Below are positions 5,527 through 63,327 of a stretch of 64,000 nucleotides of DNA, one piece after another. The DNA comes from Phormidesmis sp. (GTDB lineage: Bacteria > Cyanobacteriota > Cyanobacteriia > Leptolyngbyales > Leptolyngbyaceae), in NCBI GenBank assembly GCA_965248535.1, contig CBDFJR010000002.1, positions 1,664,001-1,728,000 of the forward strand, given 5' to 3'. A program made the position numbers and the translations under genes. The notes beneath the pieces were generated by a model that made no database searches, had not been told where the DNA came from, and saw only the letters and a program-made list of their open reading frames with translations. Positions within the stretch are counted from its first letter, which is position 1; every line of letters begins with the position of its first letter.

Positions 5527-5600
5527 GCATAACGTTCCCGATCACCGGACACAGACAAACGATAACTTAAATTCGTTCCGGTGCAGCGGGGTTGTTCGGC
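5527..5600 (-). other. attC-like recombination site of the GNAT cassette (74 bp)
   Basis: Minus strand GCCGAAC-aacccc-GCTGCACCGGA...TCCGGTGATC-gggaac-GTTATGC: R'', L''/L' pairing with an extrahelical base, and R'; 21 bp after the GNAT stop. Confidence 0.82.
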
Positions 5601-5621: not shown

Positions 5622-6137
5622 TCACTTTGTTTTAGCCTGTAAGAGCAGTTTCATCAGATGCTCATCATAAAATTGACCTTGATTAGAAAAAGCTTCATGT
5701 TCTGTCCCGTAAATGCAGAACCCCAGCGATTTGTAAAGTTGGATGGCAGCGTCTTGGACTGTGACGACCGTGAGATGTATCCTACGCAAGCTAGTATCTC
5801 GTTGAGCACGCACGAGGACTTCGGTTGCCAGTGCTCGTGCGAGACCACGCCGCCGAAAGTCAGGTCTAACATAGAGTCCAGCAATAAAACCACGATGCTT
5901 TTCATTCGCTTCTTCAAAACGTGAAAAGCGGATGGTGCCGACAAGAATTTCAGCCGAAAAAGCTCCAAGAATATATGTATCTTCAGATTCTTGGAGACGT
6001 AAAGCCATTGCTTCGAGTGCGAGCTTTTCTTCCTTTTCGGCTAGGGTGCCGAATGCAGGTGGTTGCTCACGCAATGCAGCCAAACGGAGTACTCGATATT
6101 CTTTTACGTCTGCGGGTGCAAGTGTTCGTATTGTCAT
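5622..6137 (-). CDS. GNAT family N-acetyltransferase (gene cassette)
   Basis: LYVRPDFRRRGLA acetyl-CoA motif, AIQLYKSLGF; bounded by core site GTTCGGC (6189-6183) and attC. Confidence 0.9.
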   Translation of the reverse strand: MTIRTLAPADVKEYRVLRLAALREQPPAFGTLAEKEEKLALEAMALRLQESEDTYILGAFSAEILVGTIRFSRFEEANEKHRGFIAGLYVRPDFRRRGLARALATEVLVRAQRDTSLRRIHLTVVTVQDAAIQLYKSLGFCIYGTEHEAFSNQGQFYDEHLMKLLLQAKTK

Positions 6138-6182: not shown

Positions 6183-6285
6183 GCCGAACTATTGGATATA
6201 CGGAAACTTTCCGTATATCTCCCTAATTTGAGCAGATACCCCGAAGCTTTCCGTATATAGCCCCTCACTTTTCATCAGATATCTT
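6183..6285 (-). other. attI-like site 1: core GTTCGGC plus repeated palindromic boxes
   Basis: Core exactly complements R'' GCCGAAC of the downstream attC; perfect IR GATATACGGAAA-C-TTTCCGTATATC (6195-6219) and a degenerate copy 40 bp away (6235-6258). Confidence 0.55.
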
Positions 6286-6348
6286 AGAGCAACGATCGCC
6301 CCCTCTCTTCCCAAAACCCGATCGCTTCCTTCTCTTCAAAATTCAGCC

Positions 6349-6377
6349 TTCCAAAAAACAAAAAACTCTTGTACAAT
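6349..6377 (+). promoter_or_regulatory. Putative sigma70-type promoter of unit copy 1
   Basis: TTCCAA-N17-TACAAT, identical spacing in copy 3 (63232-63204). Confidence 0.6.
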
Positions 6378-6384
6378 ACACCGC

Positions 6385-6611
6385 AGTGATGGAGTTGTGC
6401 CCCGAAGTCTGATGTGGCTATCAGACTCCGAGGACTTCCATCCCTAGTTACTACCGATAACTCAGGAGGCGTTCATGATTGTACACCGTCAGCTTTGCTA
6501 TGGGATCTTGAAAGGCTGGAATCAAGATCCTGCATACAGTTTTCCCCTCAACCGAATTTCTGAGCTATCAGAGTTTTTGTCCTCTTTGAATTAATCGAGA
6601 GGACAAAAAAC
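6385..6611 (+). promoter_or_regulatory. Conserved structured RNA leader (four hairpins), copy 1
   Basis: Stems AGTCTGAT/ATCAGACT, AGTTA/TAACT, GGATCTTGA/TCAAGATCC, TTTTTGTCCTCT/AGAGGACAAAAA conserved across three copies; loops of the first two vary. Confidence 0.65.
6475..6594 (+). CDS. Unannotated 39-aa leader ORF (MIVHRQLCYGILKGWNQDPAYSFPLNRISELSEFLSSLN)
   Basis: AGGAGG 5 nt before ATG; same start, length and stop in all three copies. Confidence 0.55.
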   Translation: MIVHRQLCYGILKGWNQDPAYSFPLNRISELSEFLSSLN

Positions 6612-6983
6612 ATGGCAGTTAGGACGATCGTGCCTAGCTCGATTTCGTTCACCATTGAGTTACGTTGCTCAATCGAAAAGCGTTATCGGGTGAGTGTGAC
6701 TTTGGATTTGCAAGAGCGTTATCTCTTTGTGTCGTCTGGCATTGTTTCGGATGTTAGCGACTGCATTGAAGAGTTCGTGTCTCAACTGAGTGAAATTTCA
6801 TCCAATCAACTAGCATTGCTGAAATGGGATGGCACGAGTGATTTGACGACCGAGTATCAGATTGTTCGAGTGTTGCCCGGTTATCAAGTAGAACGATCGC
6901 TTGTGAAGTTCAACATTGTTCTGGGCGATGGTTCATTAATTCAAGTAGAGGAATTGCACAACAAAACGACGATTCAACTGTGA
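6612..6983 (+). CDS. Conserved hypothetical 123-aa protein, copy 1
   Basis: Three intact paralogs (115/123 identical to copy 2 and 107/123 to copy 3 by manual alignment), many synonymous changes, GAGGA RBS. Confidence 0.85.
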   Translation: MAVRTIVPSSISFTIELRCSIEKRYRVSVTLDLQERYLFVSSGIVSDVSDCIEEFVSQLSEISSNQLALLKWDGTSDLTTEYQIVRVLPGYQVERSLVKFNIVLGDGSLIQVEELHNKTTIQL

Positions 6984-7342
6984 TTAGGGTTGGGGAGCCG
7001 TCGATTATCTTTTGGGAATCTGTGCAGCCAGCGATCGGGCAACTTCTCGGTCTAGGTCTAATTCAAACTCTGATATTCCCCATTTTGGCGGCTCTCTAAC
7101 TCTGTAAATCTTTAGGGAATAAAGCGATCGTGTCTCCTTTAGGGCGCTAGATAATTCACCCTCTGTTGCGAAATGCCCGCAAATGGCACAAATTTTTAGG
7201 AATCAGAACACTAAGACTCATTCAGGTTGAGTCTGCTGGTGTTAAATGCCCTTGCCAAGGGTGGCTTGACCGATATCTCAATAATTCGACCCTCAGATGG
7301 ATGGTAGCTTGTGCTCTCAACGTCCATGACCATAACGGTTAG

Positions 7343-11291: not shown

Positions 11292-11450
11292 GTCTAACTA
11301 CTATTTCTGCCGTTTGAACTCCTATCAAACAGGATAAATGCCTCTCTCAGAGAAATTATGCTGTATGCAAACCGGATAACTCCCATTTTTTTAGGAATTA
11401 TCCTGAATTCCCACAGGATAACTCTCCGATTTCGGGTAATTATACGGAAT
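11292..11450 (-). other. attI-like site 2: core GTTAGAC plus 42-bp periodic palindromic boxes
   Basis: GTTRRRY core at 11298-11292; TTATNCNG at 11356/11398/11440 and GGATAA at 11332/11374/11416. Confidence 0.5.
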
Positions 11451-11656
11451 GGCGCTCAGACTTCTCGATTCTAGGGGAGCCGTGAGTAAATTGTCTCGTT
11501 CCGATGAATCAGTCATGGCGCTGAGTCGATCGCATCCCTGCCGTTGCTCGACTGGAACATAAATCAGGGAGAAGTTACGATCGCCCCCCTCTCTTCCCAA
11601 AACCCGATCGCTTCCTTCTCTTCAAAATTCAGCATTCCAAAAAACAAAAAACTCTT

Positions 11657-12916
11657 GGGCACCTCGAAAAATTTGCCAAGAGGAGTCTTAACGTGAGACA
11701 AGTGTGAGATCATAGTTATAGAGCAGTGATGGGGCAATTGCAATGACACAGCCTGGATTTTGGGATTGGGAAACGCGCCAAGATAAGCTGAACCAGAAGC
11801 AAGACTTACTGGTGCGACTCAATGAGATTGTCCCCTGGGAAACTTTTCGCCCCTTGCTCGAACCCATTCATGACAAACCGCGCAAGAGTAATGCTGGACG
11901 CAAGCCGATGGATGTGATTGTGATGTTTAAGCTGCTGGTGTTGCAACAGTTGTACAACATTAGTGATGAAGCCTTGGAGTATCAAGTGAGTGACCGCTTA
12001 TCCTTCATGCAGTTTCTCGATTTTGGGTTAGCAGATGAGGTTCCAGATGTAACAACGGTATGGTTGTTCCGTAAGCAGTTAACAGAGCAAGCATTAATTG
12101 AACCATTGTTTGAGCAATTCGATGAGTATTTGATTCAGCAAGGCTACGCAGCTCAAGGAGGACAAATTGTCGATGCTACATTGATTCCCGTTCCCAAGCA
12201 GCACAACAGCAAGGATGAGAATCAACAGATTAAGCAAGGAGAGATTCCCCCATCGTGGCAAGACAACCCGCATCAACGTTCTCAGAAAGATAGCGATGCT
12301 CGATGGACGAAAAAGGGGGGTAAGAGCTACTTCGGCTACAAAGATCACATCAGCATTGATGCCCAACATGGGTTGATTCGTCAGTATGCTGTGACCGATG
12401 CCTCGGTTCATGATTCTCAAGTTTTGGGTCAACTCCTCGATGACGACAATGAGAGCGACAAGATTTGGGCAGATAGTGCTTACCGCGCTGAAGCAATTGA
12501 GGAAACGTTGAAGTTGATGCAGTTCGATAGTCAGATTCATGAGCGGGGATATCGCAACCGCCCGTTAACGGAAGAACAGAAGCAGTCTAATCGCACTAAG
12601 TCCACCACGCGCGTTAAAGTCGAGCATGTGTTTGGGTGTTGGGTGATGCAGATGGGTGGCAAACTGCTGCGTTCGATTGGCATTCAGCGGGCAACGGCAC
12701 AATTGGGATTGAAGAACTTGACCTACAACTTGTTGCGGTACACCTTCTTGGAAACGAAAGCAGTCGGTTAAGAAGTGGGAGCAGGAGTGATCTTGAATGG
12801 AGCCTGGATGAATCAATATTGCTCAGGTGAATGAGGGAGAAGCGATAGGCTTACATAGCTCTCTTCAGTCTCATTTGAGATCCTGATTCGCTAAAAATCA
12901 ATTAATCGAGGTGCCC
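11657..12916 (+). mobile_element. Complete IS5-family insertion sequence (1260 bp)
   Basis: Terminal IRs GGGCACCTCGAAAAATT / GGGCACCTCGATTAATT (15/17); 4-bp target duplication TCTT confirmed by the empty site in copies 1 and 3. Confidence 0.95.
11743..12771 (+). CDS. IS5-family transposase
   Basis: GRKP, DRLSF..F, PD.TT.W.FR, IVDATLI, ADSAY, R.KVEHVFG. Confidence 0.95.
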   Translation: MTQPGFWDWETRQDKLNQKQDLLVRLNEIVPWETFRPLLEPIHDKPRKSNAGRKPMDVIVMFKLLVLQQLYNISDEALEYQVSDRLSFMQFLDFGLADEVPDVTTVWLFRKQLTEQALIEPLFEQFDEYLIQQGYAAQGGQIVDATLIPVPKQHNSKDENQQIKQGEIPPSWQDNPHQRSQKDSDARWTKKGGKSYFGYKDHISIDAQHGLIRQYAVTDASVHDSQVLGQLLDDDNESDKIWADSAYRAEAIEETLKLMQFDSQIHERGYRNRPLTEEQKQSNRTKSTTRVKVEHVFGCWVMQMGGKLLRSIGIQRATAQLGLKNLTYNLLRYTFLETKAVG

Positions 12917-13026
12917 TCTTGTACAATACACCGCAGTGATGGAGTTGTGCCCCGAAGTCTGATGTACCAGATCAGAACTCCGAGGACTTCCATCCCTAGT
13001 TAGCGTTCATAACTCAGGAGGCGTTC

Positions 13027-13146
13027 ATGATTGTACACCGTCGGCTTTGCTATGGGATCTTGAAAGGCTGGAATCAAGATCCTGCATACAGGTTTTACCC
13101 CAACCCAATGTCTGAGAGATCCGTGTTTTTGTCCTCTTTGAATTAA
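13027..13146 (+). CDS. 39-aa leader ORF, copy 2 (MIVHRRLCYGILKGWNQDPAYRFYPNPMSERSVFLSSLN)
   Basis: AGGAGG RBS; same frame and length as the other copies. Confidence 0.5.
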   Translation: MIVHRRLCYGILKGWNQDPAYRFYPNPMSERSVFLSSLN

Positions 13147-13163
13147 TCGAGAGGACAAAAACT

Positions 13164-13535
13164 ATGGCAGTTAGGACGATCGTTCCTAGCTCGATTTCGT
13201 TCACCATTGAGTTGCGTTGCTCAATCGAAAAGCGTTATCGGGTGAGTGTGGTTTTAGATTTACAAGAGCGTTATCTCTTCATGCCCTCTGGCATTGTCTC
13301 GGATGTTAGCGACAGCATTGAAGAGTTTGTGTCTCAACTGAGTGAAATCTCGTCTAATCAACTAGCATTTCTAAAATGGGATGGCACGAGTGATTTGACA
13401 ACCGAGTATCAGATTGTTCGAGTGTTGCCCGGTTATCAAGTAGAACGATCGCTTGTGAAGTTCAACATTGTTCTGGGGAGTGGTTCATTAATTCAAGTAG
13501 AGGAGGTGCCCAACAAAACCACCATCCAACTCTAG
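13164..13535 (+). CDS. Conserved hypothetical 123-aa protein, copy 2
   Basis: Paralog of 6612-6983 and 62597-62968. Confidence 0.85.
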   Translation: MAVRTIVPSSISFTIELRCSIEKRYRVSVVLDLQERYLFMPSGIVSDVSDSIEEFVSQLSEISSNQLAFLKWDGTSDLTTEYQIVRVLPGYQVERSLVKFNIVLGSGSLIQVEEVPNKTTIQL

Positions 13536-54480: not shown

Positions 54481-55269
54481 TTAAGTTAGGCGATCGGGGT
54501 CTACTCCCAGTCTTCGCAACTCAGCCGCTAGCAACTCGGCTCGCTGGTGCTCTTGGTCTGCTCGCTGGCGCTCTTGGTCGGCTCGCTGCTGTTCTTGGTC
54601 GGCTCGCTGGCGCTCTTGGTCTGCCTGTTCTGCACTCCAAAGCAGCAAATTGCCAGACGCATCCCACCAGCGCAGCCAGTTTGCGGTTTGTCGGAGACGC
54701 TCCCCCGACCAAATTCCTAAAAATAGATTTAACTCAGGAATCCACACCCGCTTCTGCTCGTTGGCTTCTTGCATGATGTAGCGCTTATCCCGCAGGCACC
54801 GCACTTCTAAACTGGGTTCGTAAGGGTCGTAGGTGACATAGGTGGGCACTTGCAAAACTTGCTCATAGAAATAAAGCTTGCCATAGGGAGGAGTCGATCG
54901 CACTGACAGCTCGCCTCCCTCTTCTTGAGAGAGAAACTCCATCGCGATCGCAACTGGGGCACCGTCTAGATTAGGCGTGTAGCTGCGTCGAATCGTGCCC
55001 TCTGCTATGGGATGCACTTGGGGCACATAAAACCAGTCTGGGGCTTTGACCACCGTTTTTTTGTTGACCGTGGCCACCAACCCAAAGTTTGAGCCAATCA
55101 GCATTTCTGGCTGAATACACTCATTTGCTCCTAGGGCATCGGTTAGGGCGGCGGCGAGGGGCGGCTGTTGAATATTTTCCACGGGGTCATCTGTTAACGC
55201 AAAATCAACGGGCAGCGCTTCCCAGGTGACGATCGGGTCTTTTTTGGCAGATGGAGTTTGCAAAACCAT
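54481..55269 (-). CDS. Uma2-family endonuclease-like protein with heptad-repeat tail
   Basis: PDW, EFLS, K..FYE, WLRWWD; 21-bp tandem repeats (QERQRAD) at ~54537-54625. Confidence 0.85.
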   Translation of the reverse strand: MVLQTPSAKKDPIVTWEALPVDFALTDDPVENIQQPPLAAALTDALGANECIQPEMLIGSNFGLVATVNKKTVVKAPDWFYVPQVHPIAEGTIRRSYTPNLDGAPVAIAMEFLSQEEGGELSVRSTPPYGKLYFYEQVLQVPTYVTYDPYEPSLEVRCLRDKRYIMQEANEQKRVWIPELNLFLGIWSGERLRQTANWLRWWDASGNLLLWSAEQADQERQRADQEQQRADQERQRADQEHQRAELLAAELRRLGVDPDRLT

Positions 55270-61617: not shown

Positions 61618-61962
61618 CTACCCCGCTGGTTCTTCGGGTAATAGTGGTGCGATTATTGCCAATAATCTAGGAATATTATCTTGAGTTACGTCCCAGACAA
61701 CATCAAAGTCAATTCGATCGTATTGATGGATGATGATGTCTCGCATTCCGGCGATATCTTTCCAGGGAATTTCAGGATGTTGGTTTCGATAGTGACTAGA
61801 TAATCGTTTTGTTGCCTCTCCCATAATTTCAATCTGATATAAGATTGCAGAATGGCGCATCACGTCTGTTTCAAGCTCAGATCGGTTTAGACCTTGAGTA
61901 AAAGTCAGAACACGCTGCCCCGCAAGAAAAATGTCCATTACAGATGCCTTATCTCTGGACAT
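61618..61962 (-). CDS. HEPN/DUF86 toxin (HepT-like)
   Basis: GEA.K, IPW..IAGMRDIIIHQY (RX4HXY). Confidence 0.9.
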   Translation of the reverse strand: MSRDKASVMDIFLAGQRVLTFTQGLNRSELETDVMRHSAILYQIEIMGEATKRLSSHYRNQHPEIPWKDIAGMRDIIIHQYDRIDFDVVWDVTQDNIPRLLAIIAPLLPEEPAG

Positions 61963-62305
61963 AGATTAACCTCGCCGTCCCTAGAATTTCTTTTCGGCGA
62001 ATCCAGTTTTCGCTCTGCCCGATCGATTTTTTTGTGAGCAAGTCTACGCTTCGCATAAACAACGCTGCCAATTCTCGCTTCATTCTGACCAGTTCTAGTA
62101 ATCCACAGACTGCATCAGGATCAACTTGCACCATGACATCGATATCGCTATCGGGGCGAAAATCATCCCGCAGCACAGAGCCAAATAGATAGAATTCCTG
62201 AACGCTCCAACGCTGACAGAATTGAGCAATCTCTGCTTGGGGCAGTTCGATCGCAATTGAGTCAGACAATAACTGAAATCCTGCAACTTCAACTTTTTTC
62301 ATCAC
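61949..62305 (-). CDS. Minimal nucleotidyltransferase antitoxin (MntA-like)
   Basis: FGSVLRDDFRPDSDID (GSX10DXD); overlaps the HEPN gene. Confidence 0.9.
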   Translation of the reverse strand: MMKKVEVAGFQLLSDSIAIELPQAEIAQFCQRWSVQEFYLFGSVLRDDFRPDSDIDVMVQVDPDAVCGLLELVRMKRELAALFMRSVDLLTKKSIGQSENWIRRKEILGTARLIYVQR

Positions 62306-62596: not shown

Positions 62597-62968
62597 CTAG
62601 AGTTGAATCGTAGTTTTGTTGTGCAACTCCTCCACTTGAATTAAGGAACCCTCACCCAGAACAATGTTGAACTTCATTAAAGAGCGTTCAATTTGATAAC
62701 CGGGCAACACTCGAACAACTTGGTACTCTGTGGTCAAATCACTGGTGCCATCCCATTTGAGAAAGGCCAGTTGATTAGACGCAATCTCACTCAGTTCTGA
62801 GACGAACTCTTCAATGCGATCGCCAACATTCGGAAGAATGCCAGACAGTACAAAAAGATAACGCTCTTGCAAATCTAATCTCACACTGACCCGATAACGT
62901 TTCTCCGTTGAGCATCGCAACTCAACGGTGAACGAAATCGAGCTAGGCACGATCGTCCTAACTGCCAT
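62597..62968 (-). CDS. Conserved hypothetical 123-aa protein, copy 3
   Basis: Paralog of 6612-6983. Confidence 0.85.
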   Translation of the reverse strand: MAVRTIVPSSISFTVELRCSTEKRYRVSVRLDLQERYLFVLSGILPNVGDRIEEFVSELSEIASNQLAFLKWDGTSDLTTEYQVVRVLPGYQIERSLMKFNIVLGEGSLIQVEELHNKTTIQL

Positions 62969-62985
62969 GGTTTTTGTCCTCTCGG

Positions 62986-63105
62986 TTAATTAAAAGAGGA
63001 CAAAAACACGGATCTCTCAGACATTGGGTTGGGGGGAAATCTGTATGCAGGATCTTGATTCCAGCCTTTCAAGATCCCATAGCAAAGCCGACGGTGTACA
63101 ATCAT
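62986..63105 (-). CDS. 39-aa leader ORF, copy 3 (MIVHRRLCYGILKGWNQDPAYRFPPNPMSERSVFLSSFN)
   Basis: AGGAGG RBS; conserved frame and stop. Confidence 0.5.
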   Translation of the reverse strand: MIVHRRLCYGILKGWNQDPAYRFPPNPMSERSVFLSSFN

Positions 63106-63327
63106 GAACGCCTCCTGAGTTACTTGCGCTAACTAGGGATGGAAGTCCTCGGAGTCTGATCTGGTAAATCAGGCTTCGGGGCATAACTCCATCACTGCGG
63201 TGTATTGTACAAGAGTTTTTTGTTTTTTGGAAGGCTGAGTTTTTTGGCAGGAGCGATCGTGGTTTGGTTCCGTCTGCTCTAAGCAAGAAGTTACATCTTA
63301 ATAAATCCACAATCCTAAGAAGGTTAG

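Follow-up and report, generated by a model that had tools for sequence, protein, structure and literature searches.

In a stretch of 64,000 nucleotides from the genome of Phormidesmis sp., called the window below, the gene of an orphan protein of 123 amino acids is preceded by a short leader ORF whose stop codon falls in the loop of a hairpin hiding the ribosome binding site (RBS) of the gene. The arrangement raises the question of how the orphan protein comes to be translated, what controls the leader itself, and why such a unit is kept. The original prediction for this locus held that the protein is made only when the leader is translated. The analysis confirmed that the leader ORF and the RBS hairpin are real and belong to a small multicopy control module, a unit of about 0.7 kb composed of a promoter, a structured 5'UTR, the 39-codon leader and the 123-aa gene. 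The first reading of the coupling was partly supported; it omitted the controller of the leader, which is probably an antisense RNA, and the integron membership of the unit. The features of the window are listed in Table 1.

Table 1. Features of the unit and of its surroundings (positions in the window).
Feature	Position	Strand	Basis or remark
attC of first cassette	5527-5600	-	nhmmer hit, E 2.9e-9, profile built on related loci (the site itself is a seed)
GNAT acetyltransferase, cassette gene read away from the unit	5622-6137	-	Pfam PF00583, E 2.5e-18; between attI-like junction (6188/6189) and attC
attI-like platform remnant	6183-6295	-	G|TT crossover at 6189/6188; intI gene absent at this site
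Probable sense promoter TTCCAA-17-TACAAT, A-tract spacer	6349-6377	+	-10 is TANAAT in 61/66 copies covering it
Predicted cis-antisense RNA, about 90-115 nt	6380-6471	-	covers leader SD and both variable loops; ends predicted; fold and wobble asymmetry
Hairpin 1, long stem-loop, antisense-favoured	6388-6442	-	variable loop 1 at 6414-6419
Hairpin 2, adjoining leader SD	6443-6466		hypervariable loop 2 at 6451-6457; arms invariant
Leader Shine-Dalgarno (SD) AGGAGG	6464-6469	+	sequence; intact in 70/72 copies covering it
39-codon leader ORF	6475-6594	+	ATG 6475, TAA 6592-6594; 5-nt spacer after SD
Probable antisense -10 TACAAT	6478-6483	-	inside leader codons 2-3; intact in 71/73 copies
Hairpin within leader, 10 bp, sense-strand type	6502-6531	+	68 G·U, 0 A·C cells; 99% of cells paired
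Hairpin sequestering main RBS, leader TAA in loop	6574-6609	+	folding, shuffles, conservation
123-aa orphan protein gene	6612-6983	+	pN/pS 0.20, 68 intact copies
3' inverted repeat, loop length variable	6989-7100	+	arms co-vary in many copies (by eye); absent in about 1/5 of copies
Copy 2, attI-like platform and upstream promoter half	11292-11657		severed from the rest by IS at 11743-12771
Copy 2 of unit	12916-13535	+	leader 13027-13146, ORF 13164-13535
Copy 3 of unit	62597-63243	-	leader 63105-62986, ORF 62968-62597; no attC found upstream

As predicted, AGGAGG, five nucleotides and ATG open the 39-codon leader, and its TAA lies in a loop of 12 nt (6586-6597). The stem of this hairpin (6574-6585/6598-6609) has 12 perfect pairs, the main RBS GAGGA (6599-6603) is part of its 3' arm, and the ATG at 6612 begins 2 nt past the stem, in agreement with the 1-2 nt noted earlier. 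The hairpin folds with -16.4 kcal/mol (z -5.0), which was matched by 0 of 200 shuffles, and a perfect 12-bp stem occurred in 0 of 3000 shuffles and in 1 of 3000 random 50-nt windows of the genome. The locus has two elements of leader coupling: the upstream ORF is equipped with an SD and a start codon, and the downstream RBS is sequestered, in the predicted fold, by a structure which ribosomes on the leader would cross. Folding prediction in 63 copies with a ribosome footprint forced at the leader stop raised the unpaired probability of the main RBS from 0.00 to 0.46. The hairpin was also considered as a terminator and rejected, as no U-tract follows it on either strand.

Conservation was analyzed in 75 copies, comprising 17 of this genome and 58 of 64 related loci (six partial matches were dropped). 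The leader start is included in 73 copies, and 64 with the full 5' part were used for column statistics after 11 truncated or interrupted copies had been dropped. They stem from 9 genomes of nearly one genus, are not independent of one another, and include two identical loci. The leader was predicted to have the same length in all copies, which holds for 3/3 copies in the window and 17/17 in the genome, while genus-wide 67 of 73 copies covering the leader start have 39 codons. Among the others, one carries an in-frame deletion of 3 nt, the frameshifted L003 nonetheless terminates in the loop, two stop one codon later, at the loop edge, and have a broken main ORF, and two have a broken leader. 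In all, the leader stop is inside the loop in 71 of the 73 copies. Frame conservation in a wider alignment had been proposed as a check of the coupling; within these copies of nearly one genus, the 71 speak for it, and the exceptions are L047 and L048, the two of 73 copies in which a broken leader precedes an intact main ORF, and in both the sense promoter is decayed or missing. The distance from the leader ATG to the anti-SD is constant in 70/73 copies, and the length of the UTR is variable in 21/66. The leader TAA shows a diversity of 0.06/0/0.06, and six of the nine other loop bases are at 0.27-0.48. The stem, described earlier as perfect over 12-13 bp, is so in the window copy with 12 bp; across the genus just the inner 9 bp are kept, with 562 of 576 cells Watson-Crick, and C·A is found at 6576 in 24 of 64 copies. 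Double-sided, compensatory change in this stem was seen in 2 cells only.

The C-terminal half of the leader peptide had been noted to vary at fixed frame and length, and variation was indeed found, restricted to codons 21-33 (pN/pS 0.73). In codons 2-20, pS and pN are both 0.031 (pN/pS 0.99). This pS of 0.03 compares with 0.41 in the main ORF, and third positions are invariant in 15 of these 19 leader codons against 15 of 122 codons of the main ORF. Near-invariant third positions together with low pS indicate a constraint on the nucleic acid and not on the peptide. The peptide sequence looks irrelevant; frame and stop position are kept. The count of avoided stops by frame (0 seen, 1.3 expected, and also 0 in frame +1) is a test without power. 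The maximum 19-residue hydropathy of the leader is 0.27.

The leader region itself is probably covered by a cis-antisense RNA with copy-specific loops. The segment of this predicted RNA folds with -40.3 kcal/mol as antisense (z -4.5) and with -31.2 as sense. In hairpin 1, cells of the sense strand are A·C in 214 cases and G·U in 9, a count which rests on about five columns, two near-invariant and three common variant pairs; such A·C pairs become G·U on the antisense strand only. Hairpin 1 is more stable as antisense in 64/64 copies, and its asymmetry was reached by 0.18% of shuffles in the 11 copies tested. The hairpin within the leader, downstream of the predicted antisense start, shows the opposite pattern, and its energy asymmetry is within that of shuffles. 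Both copies lacking the minus-strand TACAAT also have a dead or missing sense promoter, a joint loss of which general decay could be an alternative cause. The sense promoter has a weak -35 and went unflagged in the consensus scan, which flagged no antisense promoter and no terminator either, and no terminator hairpin was evident for the antisense RNA.

The loops of the two hairpins diverge strongly on their fixed scaffold. The diversity of loop 2 is 0.47-0.75 per site, about twice the 0.35 of four-fold sites. In within-genome pairs whose ORFs are less than 6% different, loop 2 differs at 0.69 of sites and was identical in 0 of 22. The loop pairs are distinct in all 17 genome copies, and the natural alleles amount to 46 for loop 2 and 31 for loop 1. 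Of the 31 distinct antisense loop-1 sequences, 24 contain YUNR, which is mentioned as a recognition motif in PMC2943612, and shuffled ones gave 14.3; in sense orientation the numbers are 16 and 10.0. Within-genome avoidance of identical loops gave no overall signal, loop 2 being identical in 6/405 pairs within and 37/2010 between genomes and loop 1 in 10/393 within and 54/1885 between, no rarer within. On the sense strand, the RNAalifold consensus pairs 6383-6393 with 6472-6482, all cells being paired, with one-sided G·U/A-U changes. Such pairing of the sense 5' end with the leader start codon would be an off state with or without an antisense RNA. A pseudoknot between the loops and the leader or RBS was not supported, as cognate duplex energies were no better than permuted ones (z -0.5, -0.2) and no complementary covariation was seen. 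Rfam covariance models gave no match in 6200-7200 (best E 4). Contigs from RNA runs of relatives span UTR, leader and ORF in 4/4 runs of 2 studies; they are strandless and possibly DNA, and were not counted as support.

The window holds three copies of the unit and the genome 17, 16 of them with an intact 123-aa ORF; all 17 are on two large contigs. The unit was present in 8/8 searched genomes of the genus with 4-21 matches each and in 1/82 other genomes of the family; a search of 400 further genomes of the phylum did not reveal it. Named genomes with related copies are Phormidesmis or unplaced Leptolyngbyales. Matches to the leader/UTR DNA in 401 genomes of the class were confined to the genus, apart from three short weak hits. 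The single match outside the genus, L083 (G486:C451), likewise stands directly after intI, which encodes the integron integrase, and may reflect transfer or misbinning. Mobile elements and other genes adjoin several copies. A DDE transposase gene (PF01609, PF05598; 11743-12771, plus strand) splits the promoter of copy 2 between the -35/A-tract and the -10, its upstream half lying at 11585-11657, and a DDE transposase fragment (PF01609; 7439-8071, plus strand) is located just 3' of copy 1. A nucleotidyltransferase and HepT-like pair (61618-62302, minus strand) lies directly 3' of copy 3. One copy is positioned immediately 3' of a tRNA-Ala(CGC) gene, without attC upstream (L126:8333-8405; G000 C5 near 1266194). 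Four to five tandem 21-nt repeats occupy window positions 54536-54640.

Upstream of most copies of the unit, the surroundings are those of an integron. The R'' box of the attC at 5527-5600 matches the cassette start at 6183-6189. The platform remnant at 6183-6295 is 83-86% identical to the region upstream of an intact intI (G000 C2:1132543), the identity stopping at G|TT, and it may act as attI. Eight genome copies share such an attI-like upstream platform with identity ending at G|TT. One genome copy lies directly after intI (G000 C2:1131288; TIGR02249, 466 bits against a cut-off of 265), related loci include six with full-length intI in the same position and five with intI fragments, and intI is absent at all three copies of the window. 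Within the genus, 7 of 8 checked intI loci (9 listed) have the unit directly behind intI on the same strand, and the integrases are 55-95% identical. In other genera it was found downstream of intI at 0 of 26 loci, two of which had less than 250 nt examinable, showing that integrons work without the unit.

The attC profile, which was seeded from sites near the unit and is possibly biased to them, found 48 sites in the genome, 47 of them on the two large contigs; 29 of these 47 lie within 10 kb upstream of a unit copy and on the strand opposite to it, none on its own strand, and 18 nonetheless lie elsewhere. Of the 17 unit copies, 12 are at the head of attC sites, a number that did not exceed 5 in 20000 random placements, and in the relatives 29/31 attC hits are upstream and on the opposite strand, at 22 loci. 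The attC sites are therefore on the strand opposite to intI, as in integrons. The possibility that the unit is itself a cassette was rejected, its orientation being opposite to the array and no same-strand attC occurring within 10 kb of any of the 17 copies; the 3' inverted repeat was rejected as an att site for its wrong polarity and lack of a fixed end. GATCG, which we take to be HIP1, is found within 60 nt upstream of the promoter in 43/59 copies against 28% of random windows, and it may mark the site of intI deletion.

Several further arrays and platforms were observed. An identical segment of 166 nt follows the attI-like site at G000 C2:1132772-1132937, C2:161072-161237 and C5:797640-797805; these three platforms include both integrases, and the segment is possibly a gene-less first cassette. 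AttI-like platforms without the unit are present at G000 C2:2140237-2143996, with three attC sites, and at C5:2090616-2090717, a site where relatives carry the unit. A group II intron reverse transcriptase/maturase (PF00078, PF08388; 9511-10916, plus strand) lies inside the array upstream of copy 2, and its ORF is frameshifted at a 52-nt internal repeat (9800/9879). The L038 array has two toxin-antitoxin-like cassettes, judged from sequence, about 2 kb upstream of the unit, and its junction with the chromosome is a G|TT site, which this genome has in an empty state.

The 123-aa protein has a pI of 4.8 and a maximum 19-residue hydropathy of 1.06, without a membrane segment, and its pN/pS over the intact copies indicates strong purifying selection. 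Both AlphaFold2 models (pLDDT 85.8, 88.6) show three strands, a helix of 30 residues and a long beta hairpin. No significant match was found in Pfam, NCBIfam, PHROGs, PADLOC, PDB sequences and ESM Atlas, nor in a search for longer fused forms, and viral, phage and plasmid collections gave no relatives; distant homologues at about 45-50% identity exist, for which no genomic neighbourhood was found. Searches with Foldseek and VIA using both models returned nothing at E<=0.001 (best Z 4.5 and 4.4), a null which neither shows a new fold nor excludes any family. One structural row, to the annealase Sak (Z 3.9, rmsd 3.7, 92 aligned; Z 3.3 with the second model), is within noise. The protein, with its 123 residues and alpha/beta model, is not a small hydrophobic transmembrane peptide of the Hok/Ldr/Ibs type. 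SymE/RalR-type toxins gave no family match at cut-off and no row in the fold searches (best Z 4.5). An antisense-controlled replicon was not recognised either, as the protein had no hit to a Rep family and there was no plasmid match.

Comparison of sites between genomes revealed both sharing and turnover. Some unit sites are common to several genomes; many that carry it in relatives lack it here, a few of them retaining remnants, from which it follows that loss happens. Fifteen of the 16 intact ORFs of the genome form one clade (support 99/96), among them one whose site also occurs in other genomes, and same-site pairs across genomes are often not nearest neighbours. Same-site copies in different genomes carry different loops. 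The pattern suggests that gene conversion has acted on the ORFs and that the loops have stayed diverse.

Taken together, the unit may be read as a two-step translational lock on an orphan protein which is a fixed part of the integron platforms of the genus and acts as a type I-like addiction toxin; this whole reading is tentative, falling just short of an even judgement. Under it, a constitutive-type promoter, visible in the sequence, would yield an mRNA with the main RBS buried in the hairpin. Ribosomes translating the leader would pass through the 5' arm and halt in the loop, opening the hairpin for initiation at 6612, which is very probable. An antisense RNA starting within leader codons 2-3 would contact the mRNA through the two variable loops and cover the leader SD, and judging from the strand asymmetry it probably keeps leader and 123-aa protein off. 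With copy-specific loops, each of the 17 copies would mainly answer its own antisense RNA, and the protein would be made only once that RNA falls. The last step is a finely balanced matter: from the layout, the product could be a soluble toxin and each copy an addiction module, shielding its cassette array and surviving the loss of intI. An addiction toxin fits best with a lock that is specific to each copy and sits on an intact gene retained at 17 sites, often beyond the loss of intI. Against this step stand the acidic, non-hydrophobic protein matching no toxin family and the loss of units that occurs at sites.

The same lock could serve other ends. The integron platform, in the available text of one description (PMC4889954), consists of intI, attI and promoters only, and it is conceivable though doubtful that the unit is its fourth core component, an antisense-gated protein that spreads or locks in the platform, with a genome-wide network of 12 or more attI-headed arrays and two integrases in trans. 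In such a network, ORFs homogenised by gene conversion and loops kept distinct would mean that each copy is separately regulated. That the product is a dose-limited integron accessory factor, following the logic of tap/repA rather than mok/hok, appears unlikely, although it is the leading alternative. Such a factor would aid mobilisation or duplication of the platform, steer IntI recombination or help cassette creation, which would explain how attI platforms spread to many chromosomal sites. The position directly after intI on the same strand at 7/8 checked loci, the 8 copies with a shared attI-like platform ending G|TT, the strong purifying selection with 16/17 ORFs intact and the weak Sak row (Z 3.9) would agree with an accessory factor; yet 0/26 intI loci of other genera have the unit, a trans-acting product needs no 17 separately regulated copies, and the protein is acidic, with a Sak row that lies within noise and drops to Z 3.3 in the second model.

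Other readings dispense with part of the lock. A cis switch in the 5'UTR, whose 5' end would pair with either hairpin 1 or the leader start codon, driven by ligand, temperature or protein and coupling the leader without antisense RNA, is improbable: the RNAalifold sense pairing of 6383-6393 with 6472-6482 and the absence of Rfam families would suit it, but it leaves unexplained the invariant A·C pairs (minus-strand wobbles), the minus-strand TACAAT and the saturated divergence of the loops, and a ligand pocket should be constant between copies. In some IS elements, a hairpin damps translation from read-through transcripts. Here too the hairpin might only damp translation of the 123-aa ORF, the leader being incidental and the upstream conservation due to DNA sites or gene conversion. 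The lack of peptide-level selection (pN/pS 0.99 and 0.73), the powerless stop-avoidance test (0 seen, 1.3 expected), the evident gene conversion and the mere 2 compensatory cells in the RBS stem are in line with this. It is nevertheless very improbable in view of the perfect SD and AUG, the frame fixed across homopolymer runs and the TAA conserved in a variable loop; moreover, the RBS hairpin is about 200 nt 3' of the unit's own promoter, so it is carried by every transcript. It is scarcely plausible that the variable loops are guides or recombination spacers which address insertion sites in the manner of a bridge RNA, with the unit as an autonomous mobile element. Two variable loops of 6-9 nt between fixed inverted arms and the dispersed, polymorphic sites recall such elements, but neither loop matches or pairs with leader, ORF or flanks (all |z| < 1.4), there is neither a sharp common 3' end nor a recombinase fold, and same-site copies in different genomes differ in their loops.

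The locus, with its proposed antisense-gated leader coupling of an orphan protein at integron platforms, is richer than first described. A literature search, with most subscription papers and supplements outside it, found no description of the unit or of a conserved gene downstream of cyanobacterial intI. For cyanobacteria, one candidate type I toxin-antitoxin system has been described (PMC12390103); if the toxin reading is true, the unit would be a second, unrelated candidate, with a soluble product without a recognised fold. The origin and persistence of integrase-less arrays are left open in PMC4889954, and a route is suggested by the arrays described here, most of which keep an attI-like site and the unit where intI once stood. 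According to PMC13108822, TA cassettes guard chromosomal integrons, which is a precedent for the toxin reading. With 46 loop-2 and 31 loop-1 alleles available on one fixed scaffold, the specificity of antisense recognition can be tested directly, and the alleles could be used as orthogonal translational switches for cyanobacteria.

Among known systems, the unit would work like mok/hok, tap/repA and Sib/ibs, and it belongs neither to the membrane-toxin families nor to the plasmid replicons; it is a candidate type I toxin-antitoxin system. With hok/mok/Sok and ldrD/ldrX/RdlD, as described in PMC4147584, it shares a long structured 5'UTR, a leader ORF needed (here probably) for the gene that follows, a cis-antisense RNA (here predicted) that covers the start of the leader, and multiple chromosomal copies. 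Their products are membrane peptides, whereas a soluble alpha/beta protein of 123 aa is predicted here, and the leader of the unit does not overlap the gene and terminates in the loop of the RBS hairpin. In tap/repA/CopA of R1, repY/repZ/Inc RNA of the I-complex and repR/repA of IncI2, an antisense stem-loop blocks a coupled leader peptide, and specificity is set by the antisense loop as is proposed here (accessible parts of PMC8053102 and PMC10724649). One antisense loop-1 variant is UUGGCG, a motif that appears in the title of a ColIb-P9 reference. Unlike these plasmid replicons, the unit is chromosomal and has no Rep match, no plasmid, phage or viral hit and no pseudoknot signal. The Sib/ibs loci of E. 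coli, in the part available of PMC2943612, are paralogous and discriminate cognate partners via two variable antisense domains, which resembles the proposal made here; ibs has 5 copies, no leader ORF and a different product, while the unit has 17-21 copies. SymE/SymR (PMC4147584, in the same portion) is similar to the proposed unit in its soluble product of about 113 aa under cis-antisense translational control, and differs in that SymR lies directly over the symE start without a leader; no sequence or fold match was found between the two. With integrons and CALINs, as described in passages of PMC4889954, the loci share IntI, attC arrays whose reading direction is away from the platform, and integrase-less arrays. 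In contrast to the integrons known from that text, they carry a unit outside the array, 3' of intI and on its strand, which persists when intI is gone.
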